Positions 10,088 through 57,795 of a stretch of DNA of 64,000 nucleotides are shown here, in pieces. The notes under the pieces are model-generated. The model saw nothing but the letters and a program-made list of their open reading frames with translations. It had not been told where the DNA came from and made no database searches. Numbering within the stretch: position 1 is the first letter of the stretch; every line of letters begins with the position of its first letter. A program made the position numbers and the translations under genes. This DNA is from a virus. Taxonomy: Duplodnaviria; Caudoviricetes. The stretch lies in the IMG/VR virus record IMGVR_UViG_3300025674_000014, one strand, 5' to 3'.

Positions 10088-10986
10088 CAGGAAACGACAA
10101 TTTCATTACGTTAGATAACATAGCGGAAATACAAGATATAGTCAATGGTGATTATATGTTTACTATTTCAAATGGAGTTATCTATAAATTAGATTTTCAA
10201 AATTTTATTATTAGTAAAGAAAATACCGATTTCTTTACGACAATAGATACATTATCTGCCCAGGTTGTAACTAATACCCAATCATTATGTTCTATAAATG
10301 CATATATTAACGATACAGTTAAACCTAATTTTGGTAAATTAGATTCAATTTATAATACTATAAACTCATTAAGTGGTAATTGGGAATCAACATACACTAC
10401 AATTAACTCTTTAAGTGCTCAAGCATTCTTACCTATAAGTACCGATTCTAATAATATACAAGCAGGTAGTATGGTATATTATGATGGTAGTAATTCAAGT
10501 TTTGTTACATTAGCGCCTGGTGGGATAGGAGAAATTTTAAATATACAAAGTAATGGTTTACCAGGGTTCTTAGATGTAGCAGAATCAAATATAGGGGCTA
10601 CTGTATTAACTACAGGTAGACATGAAATAACTCCAAATTTTAACGCCGGTGGAGAATATAATGTTACAGAAACATTTACCGTATTTTCATCTGATTCGAA
10701 ATCATATAAAAATGTAAGAATAGCAACTAACGTAAATACAGTAGAAGATGTATTTAGAAGTCAAATAGCAGGTAGAAGTGAAAAAAGAATAAGAACACAA
10801 GAAGTTACTTTAAGTGTTAATGGGACAAATATACCAACAACGAATGGTGTTGGGGTAATAGAATTATTAAACCCAAGTGAATCTATATTTATTACTTTTA
10901 AAAGTAGAGGTATAAGATCTAACTACAAATCTCTTCAATTTAATTTAAATTACAGTATTACTGGATTTGAACAAGTAAATAGTTAA
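10081..10986 (+). CDS. putative virion structural protein (fibre/collar-like)
   Basis: Late TAAATA promoter; repeated T(I/L)(D/N)(T/S)LS(A/G) and NWESTYTT motifs; S/T/N-rich. Confidence 0.45.
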   Translation: MSTGNDNFITLDNIAEIQDIVNGDYMFTISNGVIYKLDFQNFIISKENTDFFTTIDTLSAQVVTNTQSLCSINAYINDTVKPNFGKLDSIYNTINSLSGNWESTYTTINSLSAQAFLPISTDSNNIQAGSMVYYDGSNSSFVTLAPGGIGEILNIQSNGLPGFLDVAESNIGATVLTTGRHEITPNFNAGGEYNVTETFTVFSSDSKSYKNVRIATNVNTVEDVFRSQIAGRSEKRIRTQEVTLSVNGTNIPTTNGVGVIELLNPSESIFITFKSRGIRSNYKSLQFNLNYSITGFEQVNS

Positions 10987-11735
10987 CGTCTATTCTTAGT
11001 GTTTTGAATTTGGCGCATCAGTTCTTCTGCTTGCGCCTTTTCTTTGTTCATTTCACGTTGTTGATCGCGAAGAATTTGTTCCATATCAAGAACTTCTTCA
11101 CCTAAAATAGAGCTGCTATTTTCACCTAACAGGTCGCCTTCAGCATCAATGTATTGTCTCATCATATGTAAACGCTGTTCACGGTTACCGAATACTTCTA
11201 CAATAGCAGGACACTCTTCATTAGGTAGAAAAGGTGAAGCTTTTTGTCCTTCTAAATATTGTCGTTCAATACCTTTGAAAATATTATCAATTTCAGTGAT
11301 AAACTCTTCATCAGTATCTCTTAAATCATCTTCAACAATTTTTATTGGAGCAGCTTTAGTAATAGGTATGAAAAATATTACATCTAAAAATCTTAAACTC
11401 TCTCTTACTACAGGTATGCATTTCTTTATAAAATCTCTATCAAGGTCGCTATTATCTTTTTCATGAGCCCAAAGAGAATATACCATGTTATCAAGAGGGC
11501 AGCGATCAAAAATAACTTTATCACCCTTTGAATATTGTTGAAGCGTATCGACCATAAAATTAAGGATGTCCCACTGCGTATCCTTCGTTGTCTCTTTGCT
11601 GTGTGGTAAGTTGTTTTCTGTAAGGTAGTCACGGTATGTTTTTTCAGGAGTGGTATACATATCCCACTCTTTTAAAAAGTCTTTTATCAATGTCGATTTT
11701 CCTTGACAAGCTGTTCCTGAAATTGCTATACGCAT
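10983..11735 (-). CDS. P-loop nucleotide kinase (AAA_28/dNMP kinase-like)
   Basis: MRIAISGTACQGKSTL Walker A; IFDRCPLD; downstream of thyX and dNTP diphosphohydrolase. Confidence 0.65.
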   Translation of the reverse strand: MRIAISGTACQGKSTLIKDFLKEWDMYTTPEKTYRDYLTENNLPHSKETTKDTQWDILNFMVDTLQQYSKGDKVIFDRCPLDNMVYSLWAHEKDNSDLDRDFIKKCIPVVRESLRFLDVIFFIPITKAAPIKIVEDDLRDTDEEFITEIDNIFKGIERQYLEGQKASPFLPNEECPAIVEVFGNREQRLHMMRQYIDAEGDLLGENSSSILGEEVLDMEQILRDQQREMNKEKAQAEELMRQIQNTKNRR

Positions 11736-11750
11736 AATAACATTTATGAA

Positions 11751-12086
11751 TTATCTAGGAAACTCAATCCGGTCATCTAAATCTTCTCTCTTACCTTCAA
11801 ACTGCATCATTGACATAATATTCCAAGCTGCAGCTGCAAGATGGTCTTCACTAGTATCGCCAGCCCAGAACTGCATCATATGTCTTTGAGCACTATCATA
11901 CAATACTGAGAAAGGTTGACCCTTTAGCCAATTATTCTCTCCATAAGTTTCAGCACCGTCTAGATATCTTTTCATGACTCTATTCATTGCTGTGTGAGGC
12001 ATTAAGCTCATTCGAAGTTTACCCTTACGATCATCACGTTGGGCTCCTGTTGAAAACTGCGTATTGTTATCTGATTGTTTGTTCAT
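11751..12086 (-). CDS. dATP/dGTP diphosphohydrolase (DUF5664-like)
   Basis: GA.RD...GK....LMP..A...V....G...YG.NNW.KG.....S..RH......HLAAAAWN; likely start 12086 (ATGA overlap with thyX). Confidence 0.75.
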   Translation of the reverse strand: MNKQSDNNTQFSTGAQRDDRKGKLRMSLMPHTAMNRVMKRYLDGAETYGENNWLKGQPFSVLYDSAQRHMMQFWAGDTSEDHLAAAAWNIMSMMQFEGKREDLDDRIEFPR

Positions 12087-12760
12087 TTCCATTCAAGGGC
12101 TTCTGCTACAGTTGGAAACTGCTCATTGAATATATTTTTAATACTCTCCGCAATAAGTCGATGTTCTTTTTGAGTATCTTCTTTTGTTCTTAGATCAATA
12201 TAATGAACCCAAGATCTTACTGAACCTTTCATATAAAGACATGATTGAGTTGCAAGAGGTAGAACTAAACGAGCCTGCTCTCTTGCAACTCCTTCTTTTA
12301 TCAACTTCTCATACGTTTGTACAGCGTGATCAATTGCATATTGAACGACATTATTGATTACTGGTTCGTCAATTACTTGCTCACTACTTTGTCTGTTGGT
12401 CTCCGCTTGTTTCCTCAGTTCGATAGGTTCAATTTCAGTAACTGAGCTATAACGTTGAGAGAACTCTTGGAAGGAAAAACTACGATGTCTAAGAATTTGA
12501 GCTGCTATTGCTCTACTTGTCTTAATCTCAACACACATATCTACCATTTCAAATGGACTCCAATGTTTATGCTTGATAAGATATTTTAACAAACGAGGAG
12601 CAGTCTCCATATTCATTTGATTAGATGGATTGGAAACTCTAGCACAATAAGCAATTAGCTCTTCTGAATTTAAAGATCTCCTACTCCAACGTTCAGATTT
12701 GTTTTGGTTATCTTCAGTAAAAATTTTAGGATCAGTAACAGAAATAAGATTAACTTCCAT
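12083..12760 (-). CDS. thyX: FAD-dependent thymidylate synthase
   Basis: HWSPFE, RHRSFSFQEFSQRY, REQAR.VLP, TQ.EH. Confidence 0.95.
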   Translation of the reverse strand: MEVNLISVTDPKIFTEDNQNKSERWSRRSLNSEELIAYCARVSNPSNQMNMETAPRLLKYLIKHKHWSPFEMVDMCVEIKTSRAIAAQILRHRSFSFQEFSQRYSSVTEIEPIELRKQAETNRQSSEQVIDEPVINNVVQYAIDHAVQTYEKLIKEGVAREQARLVLPLATQSCLYMKGSVRSWVHYIDLRTKEDTQKEHRLIAESIKNIFNEQFPTVAEALEWK

Positions 12761-12767
12761 ATTTTCT

Positions 12768-12795
12768 ATTATATGGAAGTATCTTTTAAATTCAA
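12768..12795 (-). promoter_or_regulatory. early/middle-type promoter for thyX
   Basis: TTGAAT-N16-TATAAT, ATG 7 nt later. Confidence 0.8.
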
Positions 12796-13923
12796 TTATT
12801 GTTTTGGAAGTAATTTATTTTTTAGTAAATAGTCGATAATTAATGGATTACCTACGCTGTTAAAAGCATCATTATATGCTTTATCGGGTGGTACCCCTTG
12901 TCTAAATTTATCAACAAAAATATCTAATATAATATTTGCCAGGTGAGCAGCAGTTGTAATAGGTTTTCTTCTTTTTAGAATATCACTATATTTTGGTATA
13001 CCGGCTGCTTCTTGCTCTCTTGTACTTGAAAGCCCTGTAAAATGACCAGTTTTAGGGTCAATAGATACAGATTGACCGAAAAGATTAGCAACTTGCTGAT
13101 TTAAATTAGTATCTTTATCTCTTGGATATATATAAGTGTTTCTATAGTTTTGTATAGCTCTTTGTTGTTCAATACCAGTTTTTTTATCATATATATCAAG
13201 TTTACCACCAGTACCTTTTATAAACTTACTAGCTGCAGCATAAGGGTTACCTGCTCCTGATCTAGCCCAGTTTTCTGCATTTCTAGCTGCAGTAGCAGCT
13301 TTTCCTAATAAACCTTGTTTACTAAATGGGTCTACAGCTTTAGCGCCATATTCTAATGCTTTACCTAAACCTTTAAAACCTTTTTTGACGAAATTTTTAA
13401 AAGTTGATGGTTGATTAACATTAGGTGTAGGTTGTTGCTGTTGTTGAACAGGTTGAACAGGTTGAGGAGCGGGTGCTGGTTGTGGTGCTGGTTGAGGTTG
13501 TGATGCTGGTGCTGGTGCTGGTGCTGGTAATTGGTTAGGATCTACTACTTCACCTTGTGTTAATTTTTTTCTTTCCGGATTTTCACCTGTACTTCTACCT
13601 GCGGGTTTTGCTCCATATAATGGATCTCCTGAATCAGGATCGGAATATGTAAACTTTACGCTTGGGTCCTGAGGTAAATCATCTTGTATATCGTCGCTTG
13701 AAAAAGATCTAGAATAAGTTTTAGAATCATTATCTTTATCTTCTATCTTTTGAAGTCTATTCCTAGGTTCAATTTCATTATTTTTTTTAAGTGAATTTTT
13801 ATCCTTATCCTTAAATTCGTCATCATCTTCTTTAGTAGGGCCAATATACTTTATTTCACTTAAAGTAACATATTTCTCAAATAAATTGTGAGAGTCTTTA
13901 TCCACGTAAATATTTAATCTCAA
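12796..13923 (-). CDS. hypothetical late protein with acidic region and Pro/Gln-rich linker
   Basis: Last gene of TAAATA-led operon; LFE/LSE propeptide-like N-terminus. Confidence 0.55.
   Translation of the reverse strand: MRLNIYVDKDSHNLFEKYVTLSEIKYIGPTKEDDDEFKDKDKNSLKKNNEIEPRNRLQKIEDKDNDSKTYSRSFSSDDIQDDLPQDPSVKFTYSDPDSGDPLYGAKPAGRSTGENPERKKLTQGEVVDPNQLPAPAPAPASQPQPAPQPAPAPQPVQPVQQQQQPTPNVNQPSTFKNFVKKGFKGLGKALEYGAKAVDPFSKQGLLGKAATAARNAENWARSGAGNPYAAASKFIKGTGGKLDIYDKKTGIEQQRAIQNYRNTYIYPRDKDTNLNQQVANLFGQSVSIDPKTGHFTGLSSTREQEAAGIPKYSDILKRRKPITTAAHLANIILDIFVDKFRQGVPPDKAYNDAFNSVGNPLIIDYLLKNKLLPKQ
13431..13528. repeat. coding low-complexity microrepeat (GCTGGT tandem; PA/PQ linker)
   Basis: gctggt x4 at 13505-13528 plus ggttga/gttgaaca variants. 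Confidence 0.7.
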
Positions 13924-14555
13924 TCACTGATAAAAATAGTATTACAATGATTCCAGTGAACAATCTTAAAGAAGTTATTAATCCATTCTCCTCTTTCTGG
14001 ACCGTTCATAAGATAATAAGCATGTTCCCATACATCGCAACCTAGTATAGGTTTACCAGCATTACTCATAAGGGGATTATCTTGATTAGGAGTATGTACT
14101 ACTTCCAACCTATTATCTTTTTTAACCAACCATACCCACCCTGATCCAAACTGGGACTTGCCAGATTCAACGAACTCGTTCCTAAAGTTATTGAAGGAAC
14201 CGAAAGTGCTTTTAATTGCTTTACCGAGCTCGGATTTACCTTCAAATGGAGTCCCTCCTGGATGCATGTATTTCCAGAAGAGTGAGTGATTGTAGTAACC
14301 ACCAGCATTGTCTCTAACTTTATCATCGTATTTCTTAATATTCTTAATTAACTCAACAATAGGTGGTTTTGGTTTATTACCTAAAGCTTCATTTAATTTT
14401 TTGATGTAACCCTTATAATGAACATTATAATGAAAGTTCATCGTTTGTCTATTAATTACTGGTGCTAAGTCCTTTAATCCATAGGAAAGTTTTTCAGCAT
14501 AGTATTTTGCTGTATTAGCTTCTAATAATTGATATACTTTAGACTCGTAACTCAT
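13920..14555 (-). CDS. sodA: Fe/Mn superoxide dismutase, Mn-type signature, with N-terminal extension
   Basis: HYNVHY, NAGGYYNHSLFW, FGSGWVWL, PNQD, DVWEHAYY. Confidence 0.92.
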   Translation of the reverse strand: MSYESKVYQLLEANTAKYYAEKLSYGLKDLAPVINRQTMNFHYNVHYKGYIKKLNEALGNKPKPPIVELIKNIKKYDDKVRDNAGGYYNHSLFWKYMHPGGTPFEGKSELGKAIKSTFGSFNNFRNEFVESGKSQFGSGWVWLVKKDNRLEVVHTPNQDNPLMSNAGKPILGCDVWEHAYYLMNGPERGEWINNFFKIVHWNHCNTIFISD

Positions 14556-15172
14556 TTCTTCTTACCACCCTTCATATTAGCACACCAATGGTACATCTTT
14601 CCTTTTTCACCACCGGCTTTTTTAGCTTTTGCTCTTAATGAAGTAACAGAGCCTTTACAACTAGCTCCTGATCTTTTTACTCTACCGGGTCTGCTTTTAC
14701 CTTTAACTTTACCATCGGCGTAATTTTCATGAACACTACCTTCTACTTTTTTAAGCTTAGAGTAATATTTTGGATCTTCAGCTAGGTGTTGTAAAGCAAT
14801 AGTTTTAGCTGCTTTATCACTTGTAGTGTGTTCCTTTTCAACTTTTATACCCATGGCTAATTCTTTAGGATCAGCTTTAATATGTGGTCTTGGTTTAAGT
14901 TGTTCGTTTATTTTTTTAAGCTGAATTTCAGTCTTATCTAAAACATCACCCTTTTTATATGTAGGACCATCATTTAAGACTTTATAACGTATAAATTTAC
15001 CAATTGTGTTATTAGGTTCTTTTAATTTAAAGACTTTTAATACTTTACCTTTACTACCGTAATGATCACATTCTTTGTTTGTGTTTAAACAAAGATCACC
15101 AGGACGAAGTTCATTAGCGTCTAAATCAGTCTTTTCTAAGATTTTATTAATCTTATCATTAAAGAGGCTCAT
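14552..15172 (-). CDS. basic modular head protein (contains DUF5661-like module)
   Basis: MGIKVEKEHT...IALQHL.EDPKYYSKL; K/R-rich C-terminal module with HWC. Confidence 0.6.
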   Translation of the reverse strand: MSLFNDKINKILEKTDLDANELRPGDLCLNTNKECDHYGSKGKVLKVFKLKEPNNTIGKFIRYKVLNDGPTYKKGDVLDKTEIQLKKINEQLKPRPHIKADPKELAMGIKVEKEHTTSDKAAKTIALQHLAEDPKYYSKLKKVEGSVHENYADGKVKGKSRPGRVKRSGASCKGSVTSLRAKAKKAGGEKGKMYHWCANMKGGKKK

Positions 15173-15177: not shown

Positions 15178-15183
15178 TATTTA
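15178..15183 (-). promoter_or_regulatory. gp55-type late promoter (15172-sodA-12796 operon)
   Basis: TAAATA, ATG 5 nt later. Confidence 0.7.
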
Positions 15184-16158
15184 TGCAATTTTGTTAACCC
15201 AATACTGAAGTAAGTCTTCCATAGTTTGGTCTAAATTATATTTCGGAGCCCAGCCAGTAAGTTCTGTAATTGATTCACTATCACCATGCTGGTAATCAAT
15301 ATCGATAGGACGATAGAACTTATCGTAGATTTTCTTTTCAACGTTATCAAGACCAGAATGTTTAATTAGAAGATCTGTATAATAACCCATCTTATGAGGT
15401 TCTTCACCACATACATTATATACCTGACCATCTGAACCGTCAGCTAACATAAGGAGATAATATGCATTTACACAATCTCTTACATCAATTACAACTCTAA
15501 TTGTTTCTAAGTTACCAACAAGTAAAGTTTTATCCTGATAACCTTTCATCATACGAGCTATTTGAAATGCATCGGATGATATGGAGAACGTTTTACCTCT
15601 TCTAGGTCCAGTATGTGAAAAGGCCCTAGTAATAAAACCTCGGATAGCTTTATTCTCAAATCTCTCTTGTAAGTAAAGATCAGTTGCTACTTTGCTAGCA
15701 CCATACGGGTTAGCTGGAAGGAGCTGATCTGTTGTTTGAATCTTTCTACCATCTCTTCCAACATTACCGTATACTTCAGATGTACTGCAAAACATTAGCT
15801 TAGCTTCAGGGTTGTGAAGTTCAATTGTTTGAATAAGATTTGCTGAACCCATAACATTCTCTTCCATAGTACCAATAGGGTTAACAAAACTTGTAGGAGG
15901 ATGAGATTGAGCAGCTAAATGAAATACACCATCAAATTTATTTGCTTCGAAAACTTTTGAGATGGAAAGATAGTTACGAAGATCACCGTATACAAATTTA
16001 ATTTGCCTAAAGTGTTCGTCTGGTACCACATCAAGGATATCAGTCTCGCGTCCATTAGAGTGTCTAACTAAACCAAAAACTTCATGACCATTTTCAATAA
16101 GAAGGTTAGCTAAGTGAGGTCCAGCAAAACCTGTAATACCAGTAATAAGAAATTTCAT
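15181..16158 (-). CDS. GDP-mannose 4,6-dehydratase / GDP-4-keto-6-deoxymannose reductase (Gmd/Rmd-like SDR)
   Basis: LITGITGFAG, HLAAQSH...SF..P, STSEVYG, NPYGASK, RAFSHTGPR, LLVGNL...R...DVRD.V. Confidence 0.8.
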   Translation of the reverse strand: MKFLITGITGFAGPHLANLLIENGHEVFGLVRHSNGRETDILDVVPDEHFRQIKFVYGDLRNYLSISKVFEANKFDGVFHLAAQSHPPTSFVNPIGTMEENVMGSANLIQTIELHNPEAKLMFCSTSEVYGNVGRDGRKIQTTDQLLPANPYGASKVATDLYLQERFENKAIRGFITRAFSHTGPRRGKTFSISSDAFQIARMMKGYQDKTLLVGNLETIRVVIDVRDCVNAYYLLMLADGSDGQVYNVCGEEPHKMGYYTDLLIKHSGLDNVEKKIYDKFYRPIDIDYQHGDSESITELTGWAPKYNLDQTMEDLLQYWVNKIA

Positions 16159-16231
16159 TAATATATTTTAATGAAAAACTATAATAATCAATTATCTTAA
16201 TCAATTAGAAAATAGGTTAATATATTTGTTG

Positions 16232-17137
16232 TTACGGTTTCCATAATTCTTTATTTATTACTATATTATTCCATATATTATAAAAATATACTCCAAAAAA
16301 TTTAAAAATTTCTCTATCTCTTTCTGTTATTTTAATATTTTGTTTTTTTAAATCATTAATTTCAATACAATGTTTATTTATTTGTGTAATATGAGCGATA
16401 ATACCCCCGAAGAGGCCATAATTTAAAATTTTACAACGCCAAAGTATATAAATTTCTTTCATTAATGAATCAACATTATCTTTTTCTGTAAGACCTTTTG
16501 TTCTTATATTATCAGAGATATGTGTGAATAAATGAAGAGGTAAAAAATTGGTACTTCTTACAGTATCTAATGTTCTTACATTAGGAAATTTTTCTTTTAA
16601 AATATTTAAAGAATAATAATTATCTGAACACAAGAAAATAATTTTATCTTTGTATTCCCTCATATGTTCTTCATAAAATAAAGTAGGTAAAGGACAATTA
16701 TAATCATCAAATTTGTCTGTTTCTCTAATTTGATAAGCTATTTCAGGTCTATCTAAATCATCATAAATTTTTTCACACTGATTACTGAAAGATTTATTAA
16801 ACATATAATTTTTTTTCATTAATGAAAACACTTCATCATCATACCAATCATAATTATATTTTTCATATTTAAACTGATCAGGTAATGAATAAACAAGATC
16901 ATAATCATCTAAATTTATTTCTGGTCTATTAAAATATTTACCATAAACATCCTCAAAAACCCCGTCACCGCAATCAACAGTAAACATAGGATAAAATTTA
17001 CAACCACTTTTTTCAATTTTTTCTTTAAAATAGTTTTGAATAGCAAATTGACCAGTAGTACCTATACCTTTAAACTGTTCAAAATCAGTGGTTCTTTTAG
17101 TTTCTCCAATATCATATATATAAAGTTTTTCCTTCAT
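16232..17137 (-). CDS. hypothetical protein, possibly glycosyltransferase-related
   Basis: Very AT-rich ORF in glycan block; IFLCSDN motif. Confidence 0.4.
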   Translation of the reverse strand: MKEKLYIYDIGETKRTTDFEQFKGIGTTGQFAIQNYFKEKIEKSGCKFYPMFTVDCGDGVFEDVYGKYFNRPEINLDDYDLVYSLPDQFKYEKYNYDWYDDEVFSLMKKNYMFNKSFSNQCEKIYDDLDRPEIAYQIRETDKFDDYNCPLPTLFYEEHMREYKDKIIFLCSDNYYSLNILKEKFPNVRTLDTVRSTNFLPLHLFTHISDNIRTKGLTEKDNVDSLMKEIYILWRCKILNYGLFGGIIAHITQINKHCIEINDLKKQNIKITERDREIFKFFGVYFYNIWNNIVINKELWKP

Positions 17138-17142
17138 TTACA

Positions 17143-18819
17143 TTATTCTACAACAGGTAATTGAAAATTAAAATTTTCTTTAAAAGGAAACCATGATACA
17201 TCTAATGTATCATAATCACATGCACTACAACGGAAGGATTCCCAACAAAGAACGGGTCTTTCATTTAATTTAAAATTATCGTCAAATATATTACCTATAG
17301 GTTGATAATGAGGCATAGCTGAATAATCAAATAATTTTGATCTATCTATTGCACTCATACATGTAAAAACATTACCATCTGAATCTATATTAATACGTCT
17401 CATTCCTGCTGCACAATATGTAGGTTTTCTTCCTTTTATATCAGTTAAGTTTTCTAATTTATAAGAGTTAGATATACTTTCTATCTTTACTTCTTTTTGA
17501 TCTAATACTTCATCACCATCCATAGAAGGAACATTACTATATACAAAATTATCTAAATGTGGATCCACTAAACCATGTTTGTTAGAAAAATCAATAATTC
17601 GTTGAGGGTCAACTAATTTTAGGTTATCGGGATGTAAAACCATTTCAATACCTATTCTATTTTTATGTACATTTTTTAATGTGAAAAATTCTTCTAATTT
17701 ATTGAAAAAATCATCTGGGTGATCCCATTGTGTGGGGTGAATACTAAAAGCACAATAATCCCATCTAGAAAAATCGACATCTTTCCATTCATCTAAAATA
17801 AATGTTTTACCAAAATTTGAAGTCATATCAAATCTTGTATAATTATCAATAAGGTTAGTTAATGTAGGTAAACCTTTAAACAAAGAAGGTTCCCCTCCTG
17901 TAAAATAAATTTTTCTAGGTCTAATTTCATTAATTTTTTCAGCCCATTGTTCAACAGGTATGTCAAATCTAGATTTAAGTTTTCTATAAATGGATTTAGC
18001 TGACTCTTGCCAACAATAACCGCATTTCATATTACATTTCCAAGTAACAAACCATTGAATAGCTAATGGTATTGTATTAGCTACTTGAATGCTTTTCTTT
18101 AGGTTATTTTCACTTTCTTCATCTTTTAACTGCTCTAAACCTAAAAAGTCAAAATAATTCTCTCTATTAATAATACTTTTTACATCAACATTACCGGGAG
18201 ATGAAAGTTGTAGTTCAAAGTCTTCATTAAAATCTTCGTCATGTATCTCATAAGATACTGATCTTTCTCCACCTGAATAAATTTCAACTGACTCTTTTCT
18301 ATTTTGAGTTTCAATTGTCAATCTTGTTCGTTTTTCTTGATGTAATATATAAATTATGTCAATAAATTTTGACTTTAATTTTTCAGGTTTATATACGTTA
18401 AATTTTATATCATCGTCAATAAAAAAATCTGAAGCTTGAAAAGCTAACTCTTTAATAAAATCTCTATCTTCAGATATATAATCTATACATTCAAATCTTA
18501 TATTATTAAAATATATATTTTCTACAAATTCTTTATCTTGTTCTTGTATTAAATCGTGTAAGTTAATAGGTATTTTATAATAATGCCAACCAGGGTTAAT
18601 ATTTAATTCTTTAGCAATAATATCATATTTTTCTACATGCGGATAATATATTATAATTTTTTTACTTTTAGCAGTACCGATATTGAAATATAAAAATCTT
18701 TTATTGTCTGAATTTTCAAAAAATAAACTACAATTTTTACTTGCCCATCTAAAATTACGGCCTGTATCATCCTGTTCAATTATATCCCAACCAGCTGTGA
18801 AATTTTTATCGTTCATCAT
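17143..18819 (-). CDS. radical SAM protein with SPASM/Twitch domain and long N-terminal extension
   Basis: CNMKCGYC, FTGGEP, TSN, C.AG...I.IDSDG.V..C...GNI...C...C..CD. Confidence 0.8.
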   Translation of the reverse strand: MMNDKNFTAGWDIIEQDDTGRNFRWASKNCSLFFENSDNKRFLYFNIGTAKSKKIIIYYPHVEKYDIIAKELNINPGWHYYKIPINLHDLIQEQDKEFVENIYFNNIRFECIDYISEDRDFIKELAFQASDFFIDDDIKFNVYKPEKLKSKFIDIIYILHQEKRTRLTIETQNRKESVEIYSGGERSVSYEIHDEDFNEDFELQLSSPGNVDVKSIINRENYFDFLGLEQLKDEESENNLKKSIQVANTIPLAIQWFVTWKCNMKCGYCWQESAKSIYRKLKSRFDIPVEQWAEKINEIRPRKIYFTGGEPSLFKGLPTLTNLIDNYTRFDMTSNFGKTFILDEWKDVDFSRWDYCAFSIHPTQWDHPDDFFNKLEEFFTLKNVHKNRIGIEMVLHPDNLKLVDPQRIIDFSNKHGLVDPHLDNFVYSNVPSMDGDEVLDQKEVKIESISNSYKLENLTDIKGRKPTYCAAGMRRINIDSDGNVFTCMSAIDRSKLFDYSAMPHYQPIGNIFDDNFKLNERPVLCWESFRCSACDYDTLDVSWFPFKENFNFQLPVVE

Positions 18820-21566: not shown

Positions 21567-21594
21567 AATTTAAGTTACTAAATTAAACTTTCAA
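21567..21594 (-). promoter_or_regulatory. early/middle-type promoter for 21561 glycan block
   Basis: TTGAAA-N16-TAAATT, ATG 5 nt later. Confidence 0.7.
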
Positions 21595-23123: not shown

Positions 23124-23287
23124 TTCTTTTCCATCTCAAGTAACTCTTTAAGAGCCTCTTCAGGCGATATTGTTTTTATATCAGCCTGAAGAGGTATTTT
23201 TTCGTCTGGAGAAGGCTTTGATATCTCTGCCATTTTAGCAAAAACATCTTGCTGTAATTTATTAATTGTTGGATCTCTTTCTATCAT
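23102..23287 (-). CDS. hypothetical protein
   Basis: 61 aa; ATGA overlap with queD. Confidence 0.5.
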   Translation of the reverse strand: MIERDPTINKLQQDVFAKMAEISKPSPDEKIPLQADIKTISPEEALKELLEMEKNQTDSNT

Positions 23288-38216: not shown

Positions 38217-38244
38217 ATTTTAACGTGTCTGCAGACTAGTTCAA
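38217..38244 (-). promoter_or_regulatory. early/middle-type promoter for ORF 38210
   Basis: TTGAAC-N16-TAAAAT, GTG 6 nt later. Confidence 0.75.
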
Positions 38245-38657: not shown

Positions 38658-38859
38658 TTTTCTTCTTTTTCTTTTTACGCTTCTTTTTAGTATTACGTCG
38701 TTGAACACTTCCTAATACTTTAGGCATTCTATAATCACCTGGAGCGTAATTATCACCAGAAAATTGGGACGATGTCCATGTACCTAAAGCCCCACCGGGT
38801 CCAGCTACATTACCATCTTCGTCAAGCAACTTTAAAAATATGTTTTTAAACGTTGACAT
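38650..38859 (-). CDS. small late protein with poly-K/R tail
   Basis: TATAAATA promoter; MSTFKNIFLKLLDED...KKKRKKKKKK. Confidence 0.6.
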   Translation of the reverse strand: MSTFKNIFLKLLDEDGNVAGPGGALGTWTSSQFSGDNYAPGDYRMPKVLGSVQRRNTKKKRKKKKKKNG

Positions 38860-48030: not shown

Positions 48031-49248
48031 ATGTTTATACCAATTAATCATGGTAATCCTTATGGGTCTAATCCTTTTGGTAACCCTTTTGGGAACGCAG
48101 GGTTTAAACAACCTAATCAAGAACAAAAACAACAACGGCCTCAAGATCAGGCTAGGATGCCTCGTTTTCTTAACTATGTAGCTGATTATGGTGGTTGTGG
48201 TTACTGGAGATGTATATGGCCTGAGTATCTTCTTAATGCCGACGGTAGGTGTATGGTACATACATCAACTGTTATGGTTACAGATCCTAATTATTATAAA
48301 GGACTTACAGCAGTTAAGTTTCAAAGACAAGCTGCACCTCATCAAAAACAATTTATTGAATTTATTAGTAAACTTTCTAAAGAATTTAACTTCAGGGTTA
48401 TCTATGAAATTGATGATATACCATTTAGAGAAGATATCCCTGATTACAATAAACATAAACACGCTTTTACTAGTGATGAAATAAGGAACAATATTCAATC
48501 TATTATGGAAACTTGTGGTAACATGTCTGTTACATGTAAGTTCATGAAAGATTATTTTGCATCTAAATTAGACCCATCAGTTGAAATAGATGTTATACCT
48601 AATTTTATTCCTAAGTTTTGGATTGGTAACTACTACTATAGGGAAAAGATTGAAGAGGATTATGAACGTAATAAGAAACGTCCTCGTATTTGCTGGGCTG
48701 GTTCTGGTGCTCATATTGACGTAGAAAGAAGAATAAAAGGTAAAGACGACTTCTATCATATTAATGAAGTTGTAAGAAAAACTGTTGATGATTTTAAATG
48801 GGTATTCTTTGGTGGTATTTCTCAAGAATTATCTGATTTAGCAAGATCTGGTAAAGTTGAATTCATACCTTGGGCTAAATTATATAATTACCCTGAAAAG
48901 CTATTCACATCTAACATTAATATGTTTATTGCTCCTTTGTCAGATAATAATTTTAACAAAGCTAAGAGCGATCTAAAGTATATTGAAGCTAGTGCTCTTG
49001 GTATCCCTATTGCATGTCAGGATATTTGTACATATGAGGATGCTCCAATTAAGTTCAAGACTGGAGATGAAATGATTGATCGGATAAAAGAGGTACTTGG
49101 GGATGAAAGACGGTATATTAAAGAGTCGGTCAATGGTCGTAATGTAGCAGAATCCAGATTCTTAGAAACTGAAGAGAATCTATATCAATATTATGACAAT
49201 TATATGTACGGTAGGAGTGATTCACGCCGTAAATATCTTACTACTTGA
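48031..49248 (+). CDS. GT-B (GT4-like) glycosyltransferase
   Basis: GCGYWR..WP, YEIDD, IPNF.P, ICWAGS..H, APL.DN.FN.AKSDLK.IE. Confidence 0.7.
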   Translation: MFIPINHGNPYGSNPFGNPFGNAGFKQPNQEQKQQRPQDQARMPRFLNYVADYGGCGYWRCIWPEYLLNADGRCMVHTSTVMVTDPNYYKGLTAVKFQRQAAPHQKQFIEFISKLSKEFNFRVIYEIDDIPFREDIPDYNKHKHAFTSDEIRNNIQSIMETCGNMSVTCKFMKDYFASKLDPSVEIDVIPNFIPKFWIGNYYYREKIEEDYERNKKRPRICWAGSGAHIDVERRIKGKDDFYHINEVVRKTVDDFKWVFFGGISQELSDLARSGKVEFIPWAKLYNYPEKLFTSNINMFIAPLSDNNFNKAKSDLKYIEASALGIPIACQDICTYEDAPIKFKTGDEMIDRIKEVLGDERRYIKESVNGRNVAESRFLETEENLYQYYDNYMYGRSDSRRKYLTT

Positions 49249-49278: not shown

Positions 49279-51867
49279 ATGTATAGAAATGTAGTGTATG
49301 AATCTGTTAAGGAACAAATGCGGTTGTTTACCTGGGACGAGGATGGTAACCGTATTCAAGTTACTCAAAGCTACAATCCATATCTTTATATTGAACCTAA
49401 GGATAATAGACATAAGAATGCTGAGTCTATCTACAAAACCCCTTTACGTAAACTAATATTCAAACGTGGTTCTGATCGTCGACGTTTTATCAAACAGAAT
49501 AACGTTAAGAGGTTGTTTGAAAACCTACCTGAAAAGCAACAGTTCTTATTAGATAACTTCTGGCAAGTAAATGAAACTTCAGACTTTACTAAGAATGAGA
49601 TCAAGATGTTATTGCTTGATATCGAGACTTATTCACCAGATAGCTTTCCTAATATCGAAAATGCTAATCACCCGATTAACGTTATTACCGTTTATGATAA
49701 TCTTGAGAAACGGTTTTATACCTGGGGTACTAAACCATATAACGGTAAAGGTAGGCCTGATCTTGAGTACAAATACTGTGTAAGTGAACGTCAACTGTTT
49801 ACTGAGTTTCTTAACTACCTTGAGAAAGACTATCCTGATATTCTAAGTGGTTGGAACTCTGAGTTCTTCGATATTCCATATATTATCAAACGTTGTGAAC
49901 GTATTATGGGTGAGGAAGAGATGAAAAGACTATCACCGGTGGGTAACGTTCATTATAGAAGTATTCAAGGTCAGTTCGGTAGACAACAAATCAAATGGTA
50001 CATTGATGGTATTGCATTGCTTGATTACTTGGACGTGTATCGTAAGTTTGCTCCATTGCGTGAGTCATATAAACTTGATGCAATTGGTGAACTTGAGTTA
50101 AATGAACGTAAGGTTGGGTTTGAAGGCATGGACCTTGCAACGTTATCTGATGTTGATTGGGACAAGTTTATTGATTACAACATTCAGGACGTAAACATTC
50201 TTGTTAAACTTGAAGAAAAGTTACAATACATTGGTTTGGTACGTATGTTAGCTTACGTTGGTTGTACTACCTTTGATGCTGCAATGGGTGCACTATCAGT
50301 AATCAATGGTGCGTTTTGTATTCGTGCTAGACATCGTAAGCAAGTCATTCCTACTTTTATTCGTGGTGAAGATACCGGTAAGAACCCAGGTGCATATGTT
50401 GGTGAACCTCAACAAGGGTTTCAAAACTATGTACTATCCTTTGACGCTAATAGTCTATACCCGAATGTGATGATTACCCTTAACTTATCACCAGAAACTA
50501 AGATTGGTAAGATCTTAGAAAAAACTGATGACATGATAGTTATGGAACTAGTTAACGGTAAAGTTAAAGAATACTCAATACCGGTGTTTAGTAAAATGAT
50601 TAAGGAACATAATCTTACAATCAGTAAAGCTAACATTGTATTCCATCAGAAAGAAATGGGTCTTATTCCTGAAATTGTTGATTACTATTATCATAAACGT
50701 AAAGGATTTAAAGATGAGTATGTTGACTTGAAGAAGCAGCATGCTGCTATGAAAAAGTCAGACCCAGACTATGATAAAGTCGGGGTTGAACTACAACGTG
50801 CTGGTACTAAACAATTAACAGTAAAGATTCTAATCAATTCGATTTATGGATACTTTGGTAACAAGAACGCTCCTATTGGTGATGACGATATTGCATCATC
50901 AGTTACATTGAGTGGTCAAGCAGTGATTAAACAAAGTAACGTAATCATTAGAGACTTTATCAAACTAAAGACAGGACTAACTGATGAAGATCTTAAGAAG
51001 AAAGACCCTATTATTTACAACGACACGGATTCATCATATGCCTCGATTGAGTTACTTATCAAACATCTGGGACTTACCTTCAAAAATGAAAAAGGAGAAG
51101 TACATGAGGACATTTATAAACTTGAAGATGAGTTGGTTGGATACCTGAATAAGGAAATCATGATATGGGGTAAGAAGACGTTCAATAGTAAAGACTGTAG
51201 ATTCGTTTTCAAGCGTGAGTGTATTGGTGAAGTTGGTATCTTCTTACAGAAAAAACGTTACGTTCTAAACATCCTTGATGATGAAGGTGCAAAGGTTAAC
51301 AAGACGAAATACACTGGGGTAGAAGTTGTTAGAACTACCTTGCCTAACTCGTTGAAACCGTATATGAAAAACGTTATTGAGATCATGCTTAGTACCCAGG
51401 ATTATCAAAAGACTAATGAAGCAATGAAAATCGTGTATGATAAGTTTAAGGAACTAAGTATATCAGAAATTGCATCTGTCATGGGCATTAAGGGATATGA
51501 AAAGTATGCTGCTCAATGTAACGGTATGAGTGTTGTAAAAGGTATGCCTATACATTGTAAGGCTGCCTATTACTATAATAACTTACTTAAAGCTAATAAA
51601 CTTGGTAAGAAGTATGAATCAATCGGTTCTGGCGACAAGGTTAGGTTCTTTTATGTAAAGAAACCAAATAAGTACAACATCGATAGTATCGCGTTTAAGT
51701 ATGAGTGGCCTGAAGAGTTTGATAAGTTCTTTAAACCTGATTATGATAAGATTTTTGAGAAGTTAATCTTTCAACCTATCGAACGTTTTTATCAAGCAGT
51801 TAGTTGGAAGTGTTATTTACCTAATCAAGCAGTGCAGTGTGATTTGTTTAGTCTATTAGGAGAATAA
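49279..51867 (+). CDS. 43: family B DNA polymerase gp43
   Basis: DIET, GWNSEFFDIPY, YNIQDV, SFDANSLYP, K.LINS.YG, YNDTDS, KKRY. Confidence 0.97.
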   Translation: MYRNVVYESVKEQMRLFTWDEDGNRIQVTQSYNPYLYIEPKDNRHKNAESIYKTPLRKLIFKRGSDRRRFIKQNNVKRLFENLPEKQQFLLDNFWQVNETSDFTKNEIKMLLLDIETYSPDSFPNIENANHPINVITVYDNLEKRFYTWGTKPYNGKGRPDLEYKYCVSERQLFTEFLNYLEKDYPDILSGWNSEFFDIPYIIKRCERIMGEEEMKRLSPVGNVHYRSIQGQFGRQQIKWYIDGIALLDYLDVYRKFAPLRESYKLDAIGELELNERKVGFEGMDLATLSDVDWDKFIDYNIQDVNILVKLEEKLQYIGLVRMLAYVGCTTFDAAMGALSVINGAFCIRARHRKQVIPTFIRGEDTGKNPGAYVGEPQQGFQNYVLSFDANSLYPNVMITLNLSPETKIGKILEKTDDMIVMELVNGKVKEYSIPVFSKMIKEHNLTISKANIVFHQKEMGLIPEIVDYYYHKRKGFKDEYVDLKKQHAAMKKSDPDYDKVGVELQRAGTKQLTVKILINSIYGYFGNKNAPIGDDDIASSVTLSGQAVIKQSNVIIRDFIKLKTGLTDEDLKKKDPIIYNDTDSSYASIELLIKHLGLTFKNEKGEVHEDIYKLEDELVGYLNKEIMIWGKKTFNSKDCRFVFKRECIGEVGIFLQKKRYVLNILDDEGAKVNKTKYTGVEVVRTTLPNSLKPYMKNVIEIMLSTQDYQKTNEAMKIVYDKFKELSISEIASVMGIKGYEKYAAQCNGMSVVKGMPIHCKAAYYYNNLLKANKLGKKYESIGSGDKVRFFYVKKPNKYNIDSIAFKYEWPEEFDKFFKPDYDKIFEKLIFQPIERFYQAVSWKCYLPNQAVQCDLFSLLGE

Positions 51868-51868: not shown

Positions 51869-52618
51869 ATGAATAGAAAAGGTATAATTTTAGCAGGTGG
51901 TAAAGGTACAAGACTTTACCCATTAACATACGGAACTACAAAAGCGTTATTACCGGTTTATGATAAACCGTTGATATATTACCCTATATCCACGTTGTTA
52001 AGCTTTGGTATTAATGAAATTTTAATTATAGGACCCACCTCTACACATCTAGAGCATATGGTAGAAGCTACTTACCCAATTAAAGATGTAACATTTAAGT
52101 ATGAGTTACAACCAGAACCTAAAGGATTAAGTGATGCATTTATTGTTGGTGAAAAGTTTATAGGTGATTCTAATGTAACATTAATACTTGGGGATAATAT
52201 ATTTGATGGTGTTTTTCCAACATTAAATCATAATAATACTATATATGGTGTTAAAGTTAAAGACCCTAAAGCATATGGTGTGTTAGATATCGACAATAAT
52301 TTAGGAATGGTTAAACGTATAGTCGAAAAACCCGAACACCCACCTTCAGATAAAGCAGTACCCGGTTTATATCATTTTGACAATACGTGTGTTGAAAAAG
52401 CTAAACAAGTTAAACCTTCTGCAAGAGGTGAAATAGAAATAACTGATCTAATAAACATGTATATTAATGAAGGTAAATTAACCGTTTCAATATTACCTGA
52501 TGATATGGCTTGGTTTGATTGTGGTACCCATGATCATCTTTTAGAAGCCGGTAATTACGTAAAAGCTATTCAAAATAGAACAGCTAGAGTGGTTGGAAAT
52601 ACTCAGATAATTTGTTAA
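51869..52618 (+). CDS. rmlA: glucose-1-phosphate thymidylyltransferase
   Basis: GIILAGGKGTRLYPLT, LLPVYDKPLIYYP, Q.EPKGL, LGDN, SARGE.EITD, WFDCGT. Confidence 0.9.
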   Translation: MNRKGIILAGGKGTRLYPLTYGTTKALLPVYDKPLIYYPISTLLSFGINEILIIGPTSTHLEHMVEATYPIKDVTFKYELQPEPKGLSDAFIVGEKFIGDSNVTLILGDNIFDGVFPTLNHNNTIYGVKVKDPKAYGVLDIDNNLGMVKRIVEKPEHPPSDKAVPGLYHFDNTCVEKAKQVKPSARGEIEITDLINMYINEGKLTVSILPDDMAWFDCGTHDHLLEAGNYVKAIQNRTARVVGNTQIIC

Positions 52619-54161: not shown

Positions 54162-54167
54162 CCTTAT

Positions 54168-55769
54168 ATGGCTAACATCGCAATCTACGGCTCGCATAAT
54201 GGCGCTATTGCCTTGGAAAATAACGGTGAATATCACGTTATTGAATTTGAACGTTTTTTTAATGTAAAAAATATTGGTCTAGCACAATACAAGCCTCTTC
54301 GTTATAGAGAAGAAGCTGTTTATGCAATGTTAGACTACATTGATAAGGAACTAGGATTTAAAGCTCCTTTCGATAACATGATTCACATTAATACTGAATG
54401 TGTTCATGACGATATTACTTACAGTTACAAGGATTATATTCCTGCTAAGAACGTTTATGAAGGTTGGCACCATCATGCACATGCAAGTGGATCCTTCTAT
54501 CAATCTGATTTTAAACAGGCCTTAATTTTTAGTTTCGACGGCGGTGGTAATGATGGTTTTTTCAACATCTTTTTAGCCGATAGAAAAAATGGTGTTACAT
54601 ATCTTGATAAAACCAACCCCGCCGATCGAACTAAATACGACTTCGACTTTGGGTTCCCATATATGTGTTTTGCACACTTTTGCAAAGACATTAAACAGGA
54701 ATGGATTTCAGATGGTAACCTAGTATACAGTGGTAAGATCATGGGACTCTGTAACTTTGGTAAGAGCAGAGATGAATGGTTACCTCACTTTAAGAAATTT
54801 TATTATGCTAAACCAGATGGTGAAAATTATATTAGATTCTTAAAAGAGTATATTGGAGATCCTTGTGGTTTGGTGTTTGATGAAAACAATAGACTTGAAG
54901 GTCAGTTAAGTTGGGACGTTGCAGCTACATCTCAAAAGGCTTTTGAAGAGTGCTTTTATGAAGTAGCTAAGCCTTATTTAGACAAATATGAGTTACCTAT
55001 TATTATTACTGGTGGGTGTGGTCTTAACATATTACTTAGCACTGATCTACGGCAGCGTTATCCTGAACGGGGTGTCTTCGTGGCTCCTAACACTAATGAT
55101 TGTGGAATTGCTGTTGGGTTATTGGCCGGTTTTAATAAACCCGATACTCCTATTGATATTACATACGGTGGTACGGAACTAATCGATAAAAATACATACC
55201 CTGCTTGGATTGAAAGTAACGTTGCCAAGCCAGTTACATTTAATGCTATTGTTAGTGAACTATGTAGTGGTAAAATCTTTGGAGTTGCAAGAGGTAGGTG
55301 TGAACACGGCCCTAGAGCTCTTGGTAACAGGTCAATTATCTGTAACCCAGCCTTCCCTGAGATGAAAGATATTCTTAACCATAAAGTTAAGCATAGGGAA
55401 TGGTACAGACCATTTGCCCCGGTATGTAGACTAGAAGATGCGTCTAAGTACTTTGAATGGGAAGGAGAATCAAGGCACATGTTATATTGTCCAAGGGTAA
55501 GACCTGAATGGCAAGATAAGCTTTCATCTATTACCCATATTGATGGTACTGCAAGACTTCAAACAGTAACAAGAGAACAAAATGAATGGTTATATGACCT
55601 TCTTACTGAGTTTGAAAAGAAAGCAGGTCATGGGGTTCTTCTCAATACTTCATTTAATATTGCAGGTAAACCAATTCTCAATACTATTGCCGATGCTATG
55701 TGGGTGTTAGAACACTCACAAATGGATTATCTCATTATTGAAGATTTTTACTATGGTAAACATTGGTAA
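54168..55769 (+). CDS. NodU/CmcH-family carbamoyltransferase
   Basis: SHN, E.ERF...K, HH.AHA..SF, DGGG, GKIMGL, GG..LN, P..ND.G, G..E.GPRALGNRSI, K.RE.YRPFAP, DGT.R.QTV, LNTSFN. Confidence 0.92.
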   Translation: MANIAIYGSHNGAIALENNGEYHVIEFERFFNVKNIGLAQYKPLRYREEAVYAMLDYIDKELGFKAPFDNMIHINTECVHDDITYSYKDYIPAKNVYEGWHHHAHASGSFYQSDFKQALIFSFDGGGNDGFFNIFLADRKNGVTYLDKTNPADRTKYDFDFGFPYMCFAHFCKDIKQEWISDGNLVYSGKIMGLCNFGKSRDEWLPHFKKFYYAKPDGENYIRFLKEYIGDPCGLVFDENNRLEGQLSWDVAATSQKAFEECFYEVAKPYLDKYELPIIITGGCGLNILLSTDLRQRYPERGVFVAPNTNDCGIAVGLLAGFNKPDTPIDITYGGTELIDKNTYPAWIESNVAKPVTFNAIVSELCSGKIFGVARGRCEHGPRALGNRSIICNPAFPEMKDILNHKVKHREWYRPFAPVCRLEDASKYFEWEGESRHMLYCPRVRPEWQDKLSSITHIDGTARLQTVTREQNEWLYDLLTEFEKKAGHGVLLNTSFNIAGKPILNTIADAMWVLEHSQMDYLIIEDFYYGKHW

Positions 55770-55781: not shown

Positions 55782-55788
55782 ATAGCAT

Positions 55789-56586
55789 ATGAGTGAAAGA
55801 AAACTACGTAGAGCTGTAATGCCATTTAGTGGTGGTATGGATAGTGCTGTTATGCTTAACATGGCTCAAACAGCACATGATGAATTATATTGTATTACTT
55901 TTGATTACGGTCAACGTCATAAGCGTGAGATCGAATGTGCTAAAACTCAAATTGAACATAATGAAGTAAGGTCATTTAGTCACTCGTTTGAGTTTCATCG
56001 TATCTATCATAAGATTATCGATGTGTCATTTATTAAGGAACTTGCAACTACTAGTTCACTTACTAATACTGATATTGATAACCCTGATGTTAAAGATATG
56101 GTTGGTGAAGCTCAACCAGCTAGTTATGTACCTTTTAGGAACCAGTTGTTTCTAAGTATTGCATGTGCTTATGCTGAGTCTATTGGTGCTGATACCGTAT
56201 ATCATGGTGCAACCCAAGTTGATAGTCTTGCTGGTTACTGGGATGGTAGTCCTGAATTCCAAGATAGTTTTAATAAACTGATTAGTCTTAATAGACAAAA
56301 TCAAATTGTAGTTAAATGTCCATTGATTAACCTTAGCAAGAAAGACATTATTCTATCTGGTATTAGTAACAGGGTAGATTTTGGTGAAACATATACGTGT
56401 TATAGTGGTGATGAAATTGCTGATGCAACTACACCAAGTAGTGCACTACGTATTAAGGGTTTTTGTGATGCTGGTTATATTGACCCTCAACCATATAAGC
56501 AAGATCTTACATCATTATGGGAAGAGCATGACTGTAAGCCATGCCCTACTGGGTTCTTTTTACAAAAAGGAGGTACTAGAGGTTAA
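55789..56586 (+). CDS. queC: 7-cyano-7-deazaguanine synthase QueC, degenerate Zn site
   Basis: FSGGMDS, F.YGQRH..E, SSLT, YVPFRN..FLS.A, Y.D....F, P....SK..I, TY.CY. Confidence 0.88.
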   Translation: MSERKLRRAVMPFSGGMDSAVMLNMAQTAHDELYCITFDYGQRHKREIECAKTQIEHNEVRSFSHSFEFHRIYHKIIDVSFIKELATTSSLTNTDIDNPDVKDMVGEAQPASYVPFRNQLFLSIACAYAESIGADTVYHGATQVDSLAGYWDGSPEFQDSFNKLISLNRQNQIVVKCPLINLSKKDIILSGISNRVDFGETYTCYSGDEIADATTPSSALRIKGFCDAGYIDPQPYKQDLTSLWEEHDCKPCPTGFFLQKGGTRG

Positions 56587-57167
56587 TAGTCCTCTAAATC
56601 GTCGTCCTGATATTCGGACATATCATCATCAGGGCGATCATCAATTTCATCATACTCCGTGTCCATAGAAGCGGTGGGATCAACATAATCAGCAGTAGTT
56701 GGTTCCACCGCTTCGCCACCTTTAATGTTAATTTCGTCTAAGTAACCATCAGCTATCATTCCACCTAAAAGTACTTCTGCTTCCTTTTTATCCATTCCTG
56801 TTTTAGTAAGGAACTCCATTATGTCTTTAGCTTTTGCTGAATCGTCTGCTTCAACATATCTTACAACATCACGTTGAGCTGTGTTTAATCTTTCTTCGTA
56901 CGATTTATCAGCAACTTTAAATTCTCTATTACCAAGTTTAACCTTATTACTGGTTTTTTCTTTTCGTTGTCTTGTTGCTCTTGATCTTACACCAGAACCT
57001 TTACCTTTTAACCTCATCATCATTTCATAATAAGACTCTTTTCTTTCTTCACCGGTGTCAGGATCTACGACAGTTTTACGTTCTCTATCTTTGTATTGTT
57101 TTTTACGCCCTTCTTCAATGGACTGCATATACGATTCAAATAGAAATTGATTTTCTCTGTCTTTCAT
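56583..57167 (-). CDS. hypothetical late protein (basic N-half, acidic C-tail)
   Basis: TAAATA 6 nt upstream; MKDRENQFLFESYMQSIEEG. Confidence 0.6.
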   Translation of the reverse strand: MKDRENQFLFESYMQSIEEGRKKQYKDRERKTVVDPDTGEERKESYYEMMMRLKGKGSGVRSRATRQRKEKTSNKVKLGNREFKVADKSYEERLNTAQRDVVRYVEADDSAKAKDIMEFLTKTGMDKKEAEVLLGGMIADGYLDEINIKGGEAVEPTTADYVDPTASMDTEYDEIDDRPDDDMSEYQDDDLEDY

Positions 57168-57173
57168 TATTAT

Positions 57174-57179
57174 TATTTA
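57174..57179 (-). promoter_or_regulatory. gp55-type late promoter
   Basis: TAAATA, ATG 6 nt later. Confidence 0.7.
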
Positions 57180-57183
57180 ATAT

Positions 57184-57795
57184 ATGTGTGCAATATTTGG
57201 TACAAAAAATAAAGAACAATTTGATTCATTATATGAACTAAATCATAAACGTGGTGGGTTTGCATTCAGTGCAGTTTTTAGGAACAAAGAAGGTAAGTTT
57301 ATGACTACTAAAGGTCGTAAATATATCAAACCACTAAGTAATGCAAAGTATATTCTAGCCCATGACCAAGCCCCTACTTCTTCAGTTCGGTTGTATGATT
57401 ACCGTACTTCTCACCCGTTTGTTTGTGGTGAGTGGGTGGTGGCACATAATGGTGTATTAACTAATCATAAGGAACTGTTAAAAGAACACAATTGTGATGT
57501 TGATAGTAGTTATATACCCGCTCTTCTCGATAAGGAGACTAAAGGAGAAGTAACTTCTATTGAAAATGTGTGTAGTTTATTAGAAGGTACATTTGCTTGT
57601 TGGATAGTTAATAGAACAAGTGGTAACATTTACTTGGTTAAACAAGGTAGTACGCTATTTTATGATGGTGCTACATTTTCATCGGTAAAATTTACTGGTA
57701 GTTATGCATTGAGAGACGGGGTTGTTTATCTTGTTGAAGATACAATTGCTCCAATTGGTAAGTTTAAAAGTAACAGTCCTTTTGCATTGATATAG
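57184..57795 (+). CDS. class II (Ntn) glutamine amidotransferase
   Basis: N-terminal MC.IFG, RG, AH..APT, HPF, VAHNG, DS. Confidence 0.8.
   Translation: MCAIFGTKNKEQFDSLYELNHKRGGFAFSAVFRNKEGKFMTTKGRKYIKPLSNAKYILAHDQAPTSSVRLYDYRTSHPFVCGEWVVAHNGVLTNHKELLKEHNCDVDSSYIPALLDKETKGEVTSIENVCSLLEGTFACWIVNRTSGNIYLVKQGSTLFYDGATFSSVKFTGSYALRDGVVYLVEDTIAPIGKFKSNSPFALI

Follow-up and report, generated by a model that had tools for sequence, protein, structure and literature searches.

The DNA examined here, a stretch of 64,000 nucleotides from the IMG/VR virus record IMGVR_UViG_3300025674_000014 (below, "the window" means this whole stretch), carries a complete gene set for synthesis of the 7-deazaguanine precursor preQ0, comprising FolE, QueD, QueE, and QueC (identified by Pfam, NCBIfam, and tblastn). 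The DpdA-family transglycosylase that serves as the signature of phage 7-deazaguanine systems was not found in the window, nor in records of the same phage clade that together cover ~190 of ~230 kb. This absence of DpdA holds as far as it is testable, and a specific gene replacement common to a large marine clade explains it: gene order in related phages indicates that the clade inherited a DpdA3-type system of the kind found in Flavobacterium phage immuto_2-6A, and then rebuilt it. We tentatively favor a reading in which a preQ1-type base is converted to a nucleotide that the polymerase inserts, so that deoxyguanosine (dG) would be exchanged ahead of replication and no DNA transglycosylase would be involved.

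From 2023 onward, possession of a DpdA-family gene has counted as the hallmark of any virus whose DNA contains 7-deazaguanine. Cui/Hutinet 2023 reported that phages CP220, phiST, and immuto_2-6A, all once thought to lack DpdA, carry DpdA3, a distant and short relative of tRNA-guanine transglycosylase (TGT), that each shows 100% replacement of dG, and that every 7-deazaguanine virus encodes DpdA as its signature protein (PMC10516641). A route through modified deoxyguanosine triphosphate (dGTP) had previously been proposed for DpdA-less phages (PMC6884629), and an earlier note on the window, made from the sequence by a model, had suggested such a route for this phage; that note took no account of DpdA3, a protein that is unrecognizable by eye. 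To our knowledge, the activity of DpdA3 has never been demonstrated, although it is credited with the 100% replacement.

The genes that the earlier note had named (FolE, QueD, QueE, QueC, a glutamine amidotransferase or Gat, a block of ThyX, DUF5664, and kinase genes, and the polymerase PolB) lie where it had placed them, show strong family scores (Table 1), and are dispersed along the window as it had described. QueE, which is weak in Pfam, is 33-35% identical over its full length to annotated viral QueE proteins. The 227-aa QueD is longer than the 166-aa protein of G034 (a distant DpdA3-positive relative whose 200,819-bp genome is complete and has terminal repeats) by a C-terminal extension of ~60-75 residues without a family match. 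Of the four genes credited with promoters of their own, three (folE, queD, and queE) are preceded by a TTGAxx-N17-TATAAT-like pair whose end lies 4-8 nt ahead of the ATG. The fourth is queC, which has a -10 box only and begins 19 nt behind a carbamoyltransferase gene, and which may therefore be co-transcribed with it.

The description of QueC as altered was borne out. The fold and the SGGxDS PP-loop motif are kept (residues 6-209 align to 2pg3 and residues 5-226 to 3bl5), and alignments to these PDB structures and to relatives show that three of the four Zn cysteines are gone, the first Cys being retained and the CxxCxxC stretch containing no cysteines. The same three are absent from the QueC of G006, a 105-kb contig that is the closest DpdA3-positive relative of the window. 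Orthologs of the free-standing Gat adjoin QueC in both G034 and G006, and Gat is a likely ammonia donor for QueC. On comparison, it is not the same Gat as that of the phage 9g Gat-QueC, and the reading frame between QueC and Gat (56583-57167) gave no lead on its identity.

Could these genes be a functionless, decaying remnant left behind after loss of DpdA3? The loss of both the signature insertion enzyme and its partner DpdN would fit such decay, as would a QueC without its Zn site. However, constraint on the pathway genes equals that on the replisome genes (pN 0.12-0.31 at saturation of synonymous sites) and all remain intact across sublineages, the Cys-less QueC also occurs in DpdA3-positive G006, and new genes have been recruited beside the pathway genes. 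We thus consider decay, already disfavored, to be highly improbable.

No TGT or QueF was matched by Pfam among 63 open reading frames (ORFs) scanned in the window. A six-frame search of the window with three DpdA3 hidden Markov models (HMMs), built from the phiST and CP220 DpdA3 proteins and 120 collected homologs, returned only noise (best E 0.016-0.2), as did direct comparison of the phiST and CP220 proteins with the window by tblastn, phmmer, and HMM. In hhalign comparisons, which took in 553 clade ORFs and the window ORFs of 120-700 aa, the maximum probability for DpdA was 19%, compared with 99% for remote positive controls. Two weak candidates were inspected and rejected: ORF 10081-10986, the top noise match to DpdA3, whose language-model features resemble fiber proteins, and the low-complexity L160 ORF 15168-15899. 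The earlier statement that the window holds neither QueF nor a TGT/DpdA therefore stands for every DpdA type, DpdA3 and DpdA4 included, and no DpdA3, TGT, or DUF6610 protein was found beyond it in the clade records G060, G059 (69 kb), G005, G003, G004, G042, G056, and G045 (61.6 kb), which with the window extend from about -55 kb to +135 kb of a genome taken as roughly 230 kb. For QueF, the negative applies to the window alone. In clade relatives, a bimodular QueF lies outside the region corresponding to the window, in an operon with a P-loop kinase beside the gp23 major capsid gene; the product of the pathway would therefore be at the preQ1 level.

It is at this QueF operon that the fate of DpdA3 becomes apparent. 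In G034, QueF comes first in the row, then an AAA_28 kinase and a 116-aa ORF, and after these a formyltransferase (DpdN) and DpdA3, with a phosphoribosyltransferase (PRTase) nearby. G006 has the same arrangement plus two extra unassigned genes between DpdN and DpdA3 (99559-102521, L277/L278, encoding 526 and 439 aa). The immuto_2-6A locus consists of a PRTase, followed at some remove by DpdA3, DpdN, the kinase, and QueF; its DpdA3 is 46% identical to that of G034, and DpdA3 adjoins DpdN in immuto_2-6A, G034, G006, and L084 (a DpdA3-positive contig of 229.7 kb). The DpdA3-DpdN-kinase-QueF module of immuto_2-6A is accompanied by 100% fdPreQ1 in place of dG (PMC10516641). Since the relatives G034 and G006 carry the immuto-type module, the ancestral state is an immuto-type system. 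In L084, a GMP reductase/IMPDH-like gene (11378-12343, + strand) lies between DpdN and the kinase, which hints at nucleotide-level chemistry inside DpdA3 clusters.

In the clade of the window, the same locus holds a metallophosphoesterase (MPE), the kinase, and QueF, with overlapping reading frames. A baseplate-hub gene and a ~384-aa gene flank it on one side, and QueF and gp23 on the other. Loci of this type with the same flanks number ~40 across IMG/VR, JGI, ENA, and Tara, and none has DpdA3 or DpdN. The ENA and Tara contigs among them reach 221 kb in length, and in the JGI/Tara set (~40 loci) the MPE matches the query at 42-100% identity. The MPE is weakly ApaH-like with all metallophosphoesterase catalytic motifs invariant; PDB searches with it and with the DUF5664 protein gave no usable match. 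In public sequencing runs containing the window, the MPE-type locus is found as well, at 95-99% identity. Some sublineages (L373:12220-12864 and L384:9185-9907, both + strand) have an additional unassigned gene (214-247 aa) behind QueF in its operon, which the G003 lineage lacks.

These loci bear directly on whether a transglycosylase might still insert the base after replication, whether encoded by a DpdA gene in the ~40 kb beyond our coverage, by a diverged or non-homologous protein (such as a deoxyribosyltransferase), or by a host DpdA. DpdA3 and DpdA4 were themselves overlooked for years, many ORFs of the window and clade have no family assignment, and coverage of the genome is incomplete and, beyond the window and G060, depends on relatives that are 80-97% identical. 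The ~40 kb outside our coverage, and a QueF locus known from relatives, also count against the reading we favor. Nevertheless, the ancestral DpdA3 site is taken by another gene in ~40 loci, DpdN is gone together with DpdA3, and the hhalign maximum described above falls far from that of the remote controls, so that we regard continued insertion by a transglycosylase as unlikely.

The favored alternative, insertion of the modified nucleotide by the polymerase, would proceed as follows. A PRTase would join the free preQ1-type base, which may bear a carbamoyl cap instead of the formyl group attributed to DpdN, to phosphoribosyl pyrophosphate (PRPP); two kinases would phosphorylate the product, a reductase would make its deoxy form, and PolB would incorporate the modified nucleotide into DNA. 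Meanwhile, dGTP would be drained by the DUF5664 protein and the inorganic pyrophosphatase, perhaps also by the phosphoesterase. The pyrophosphatase would in addition pull forward the steps that release pyrophosphate (PRTase, QueC, and DUF5664). A precedent for base exchange at the nucleotide level is provided by a documented natural deoxyribose-5-phosphate transferase (PMC12884076).

Enzymes of the classes needed to reach a deoxynucleoside triphosphate (dNTP) are present in the clade. Clade relatives carry a Gpt/XGPRT-like PRTase, which is syntenic in an ENA contig (a scan of IMG/VR for this PRTase returned the query itself as the sole match), as well as a class II ribonucleotide reductase (RNR) and two dNK/AAA_28-type kinases, one of them beside QueF. 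The other, kinase 1 of the window, weakly matches deoxyguanosine kinase 2jaq and is 59% identical to G034_165042-165809; its ortholog adjoins QueE in both G034 and G006. The DUF5664 gene next to kinase 1 is confined to the clade among 30 related records (occurring in G005 besides the window) and is absent from complete G034. The carbamoyltransferase gene directly precedes QueC in 8/8 clade records holding QueC and in 0/16 other QueC-bearing relatives, is as conserved as PolB, and is 81% identical to its G003 counterpart at the amino acid level. The block of ThyX, DUF5664, and kinase genes remarked on in the earlier note is present in the window; no ThyX ortholog exists in clade member G005, however, and for that reason ThyX is probably not part of the module.

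A stronger version of the polymerase route can also be formulated, in which a fully pre-replicative, DpdA-independent pathway achieves wholesale replacement of dG by a preQ1-derived base, maybe a new one, N-carbamoyl-preQ1, made by the QueC-linked carbamoyltransferase. Here the Gpt-like PRTase, the two kinases, and the class II RNR would yield the dNTP, while DUF5664 and the ApaH-like phosphoesterase would clear dG nucleotides. This complete scheme seems doubtful. If it were true, DpdA3 would be dispensable for complete replacement, and the PRTase and kinases of DpdA3 phages would be the real main route.

Several observations weigh against insertion by the polymerase. The proposal of a modified dGTP is compatible with the missing DpdA, the phosphoesterase at the DpdA3/DpdN locus, QueF, the second kinase, the PRTase, and the RNR; yet DpdA3-positive relatives likewise have the PRTase, the RNR, and both kinases, so that the presence of these enzymes alone does not imply a route free of DpdA. 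The PRTase could be no more than a purine-salvage enzyme. The DUF5664 protein, suggested to destroy dGTP, is restricted to the clade among the compared records, but homologs exist in 655 phage records, mostly from actinophages not known to replace a base, and the characterized stand-alone DUF5664 protein, from Arthrobacter phage Wayne, is a dNTP pyrophosphohydrolase acting on dATP > dUTP > dGTP, with dATP favored tenfold relative to dGTP (PMC12884076). The carbamoyltransferase, read in the earlier note as a hint of a new base, is fixed before QueC in this clade only, but cyanophages and jumbo phages commonly carry members of its family, and many glycan genes surround it here. DUF5664 and the carbamoyltransferase, being common in ordinary phages, are thus weak evidence alone. 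As for the other supposed marks of a new base, DUF366 (whose G034 ortholog is 57% identical), the free-standing Gat, and the Cys-less QueC are all shared with DpdA3-positive relatives, and so are no mark of DpdA-less chemistry. Finally, the window, G045, and G059 show a mild but consistent depletion of the motifs GATC and CATG (observed/expected ratio 0.71-0.89, z about -3 to -4) that is not seen in DpdA3-positive G034 (0.93-0.97), which would fit less rather than more protection of the DNA; other palindrome statistics, taken as a proxy for modification through avoidance, were uninformative.

Many of the same observations would be accommodated if the DNA of these phages were no longer modified, and the retained FolE-QueD-QueE-QueC-QueF pathway made preQ1 for the host TGT, or made another small molecule. 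More queuosine in host tRNA would aid translation of the AT-rich phage genome, and DUF5664, the MPE, and the carbamoyltransferase would be unrelated housekeeping or glycan genes. Hutinet 2019 put forward the same idea for phages with the pathway but without DpdA. The preQ1 yielded by bimodular QueF is the substrate of bacterial TGT, joint loss of DpdA3 and DpdN is the expected look of abandoning the DNA branch, the GATC/CATG depletion is confined to the window clade in the comparison with G034, and DUF5664 and the carbamoyltransferase occur widely in phages with ordinary DNA. Two features are hard to explain for a free-base product, namely the tight linkage of two kinases to QueE and QueF and the insertion of the phosphoesterase into the QueF operon with overlapping frames. 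Furthermore, all other tested phage groups with the pathway proved to modify their DNA (PMC10516641), and the window contains no tRNA genes, though the latter carries little weight. On balance, we judge redirection of the pathway to tRNA or another small molecule to be rather improbable.

Table 1. Pathway, nucleotide-handling, and neighboring genes of the window.
Feature	Position	Strand	Evidence
FolE, GTP cyclohydrolase I	26452-27108	+	Pfam 1.8e-48
QueD (CPH4 synthase), PTPS family	23284-23967	-	Pfam PTPS 1.8e-18; NCBIfam QueD
QueE, radical-SAM CDG synthase	21583-22332	-	tblastn to viral QueE 1e-36; five NCBIfam QueE models
QueC variant with C-terminal extension	55789-56586	+	Pfam 1.6e-51
Class-II (Ntn) glutamine amidotransferase domain, free-standing (Gat)	57184-57795	+	Pfam GATase_6/7 ~5e-7; Met-Cys start
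NodU/Nol-type carbamoyltransferase	54168-55769	+	Pfam 1.1e-61; NCBIfam NodU 5.6e-45
P-loop kinase 1 (AAA_28/dNK-like)	10983-11735	-	Pfam AAA_28 1.1e-11, dNK 0.0026
Stand-alone DUF5664/dGTP_diPhyd_N, likely dNTP pyrophosphohydrolase (predicted)	11751-12092	-	Pfam PF18909 1.4e-21, above Pfam cut-off
ThyX thymidylate synthase	12083-12760	-	Pfam PF02511 2e-48
DUF366 protein	2472-3062	-	Pfam PF04017 1.1e-19; 80% aa identity to G005
Inorganic pyrophosphatase	3075-3596	-	Pfam PF00719 1.1e-50
Family B DNA polymerase (PolB, gp43-like), presumed incorporating enzyme	49279-51867	+	Pfam DNA_pol_B + exonuclease domain

The source of the window is an estuarine/marine T4-like phage of roughly 230 kb (CheckV figures on fragments give an estimate of ~210 kb), with a GC content of ~31% in the window. 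Its PolB is only ~32% identical to gp43 of cyanophages and pelagiphages, which makes it a deep-branching T4-like phage. IMG/VR contigs related by PolB form two groups: the window clade, whose PolB identity is 80-100%, and distant relatives with 31-57%. Several of the distant relatives have DpdA3. Within the clade, G060 belongs to the same species as the window (96.7% nucleotide identity), overlapping positions 1-15164 and extending 26.6 kb leftward; a further leftward search with a fiber-like protein as the query found no new record. G006 and the window are collinear over the kinase, QueE, PhoH, QueD, FolE, gp47/46, PolB, UvsX, QueC, Gat, and gp41. Near-identical fragments of the window were found in estuarine, freshwater, and marine metagenomes, and the clade is widespread in the oceans. 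One public run (X10, from 2023 and labeled as a single organism) contains roughly half of the words sampled from the PolB-QueC stretch, and may point to a host or to a culture with a relative.

The replisome genes of the window are interspersed with a large glycan toolkit (3580-10053, 15181-20728, 25816-26400, 39287-41289, 43281-44324, 45408-46190, 48031-49248, 51869-52618, and 57821-58900) that includes GT11, GT10, and GT7C-type transferases, with fucosyl- and galactosyltransferases among its members, Gmd-like and RmlA-like proteins, epimerases, sulfotransferases, HtrL-like and GT1 proteins, and a pair of HAD and nucleotidyltransferase proteins. An Fe/Mn superoxide dismutase is encoded amid apparent late/head genes (13920-14555, - strand), and a SegE-like GIY-YIG homing endonuclease (Pfam 4.4e-34) at 38241-38708 (- strand).

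Taken together, the clade amounts to a natural deletion-replacement of DpdA3 and DpdN in which the rest of the machinery has remained under selection. One possible outcome is that these phages arrive at a 7-deazaguanine genome through nucleotides and free of DpdA, perhaps with a new base; the alternative is that they offer a clear-cut instance of a phage pathway turned over to host tRNA. In both cases, the real roles of DpdA3, the conserved kinases, and the PRTase would become clearer.

Among known systems, that of immuto_2-6A is a close counterpart. The window clade has FolE, QueD, QueE, QueC, and bimodular QueF in common with it, along with (in clade relatives) a P-loop kinase adjoining QueF and a small purine-type PRTase, and both are myoviruses of aquatic habitats; the window's relatives G034 and G006 carry the very DpdA3-DpdN-kinase-QueF module of that phage. 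Unlike immuto_2-6A, the window clade has the metallophosphoesterase in place of DpdA3 and DpdN, adds DUF5664 and the carbamoyltransferase adjoining QueC, uses PolB rather than PolA, and has its genes dispersed rather than clustered.

The Campylobacter firehammerviruses, represented by CP220, in which dG is fully replaced by dADG, are likewise T4-like phages with dispersed folE, queD, queE, and queC. CP220 too was once thought to be DpdA-less, and a modified-dGTP route was proposed for the firehammerviruses. In both CP220 and the window, the neighborhood includes a radical-SAM gene and another that is cytidylyltransferase-like; the radical-SAM protein of the window has 558 aa (17143-18819, - strand), and the extra radical-SAM gene of CP220 is near queE. 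Unlike the window clade, CP220 encodes DpdA3, keeps the Zn cysteines of QueC, and has no QueF, and its PolB is distantly related.

Chemistry of the kind proposed for the first step exists in the biosynthesis of toyocamycin and sangivamycin, where the phosphoribosyltransferase ToyH acts on preQ0, and a purine-type PRTase thus uses PRPP to turn a free 7-deazaguanine base into a nucleotide. That pathway belongs to bacterial secondary metabolism, and its end product is a nucleoside antibiotic, not DNA. The overall logic of the favored reading resembles that of the Z-genome (2-aminoadenine) phages, which combine PurZ with DatZ, MazZ, DUF550 or DUF5664, plus DpoZ. Although the window is without PurZ, DatZ, and DUF550, and the purine concerned would be G rather than A, a DUF5664-family pyrophosphohydrolase is present in both, and in both the analog nucleotide would be made, the canonical dNTP destroyed, and the analog then polymerized, with all of the chemistry preceding replication.

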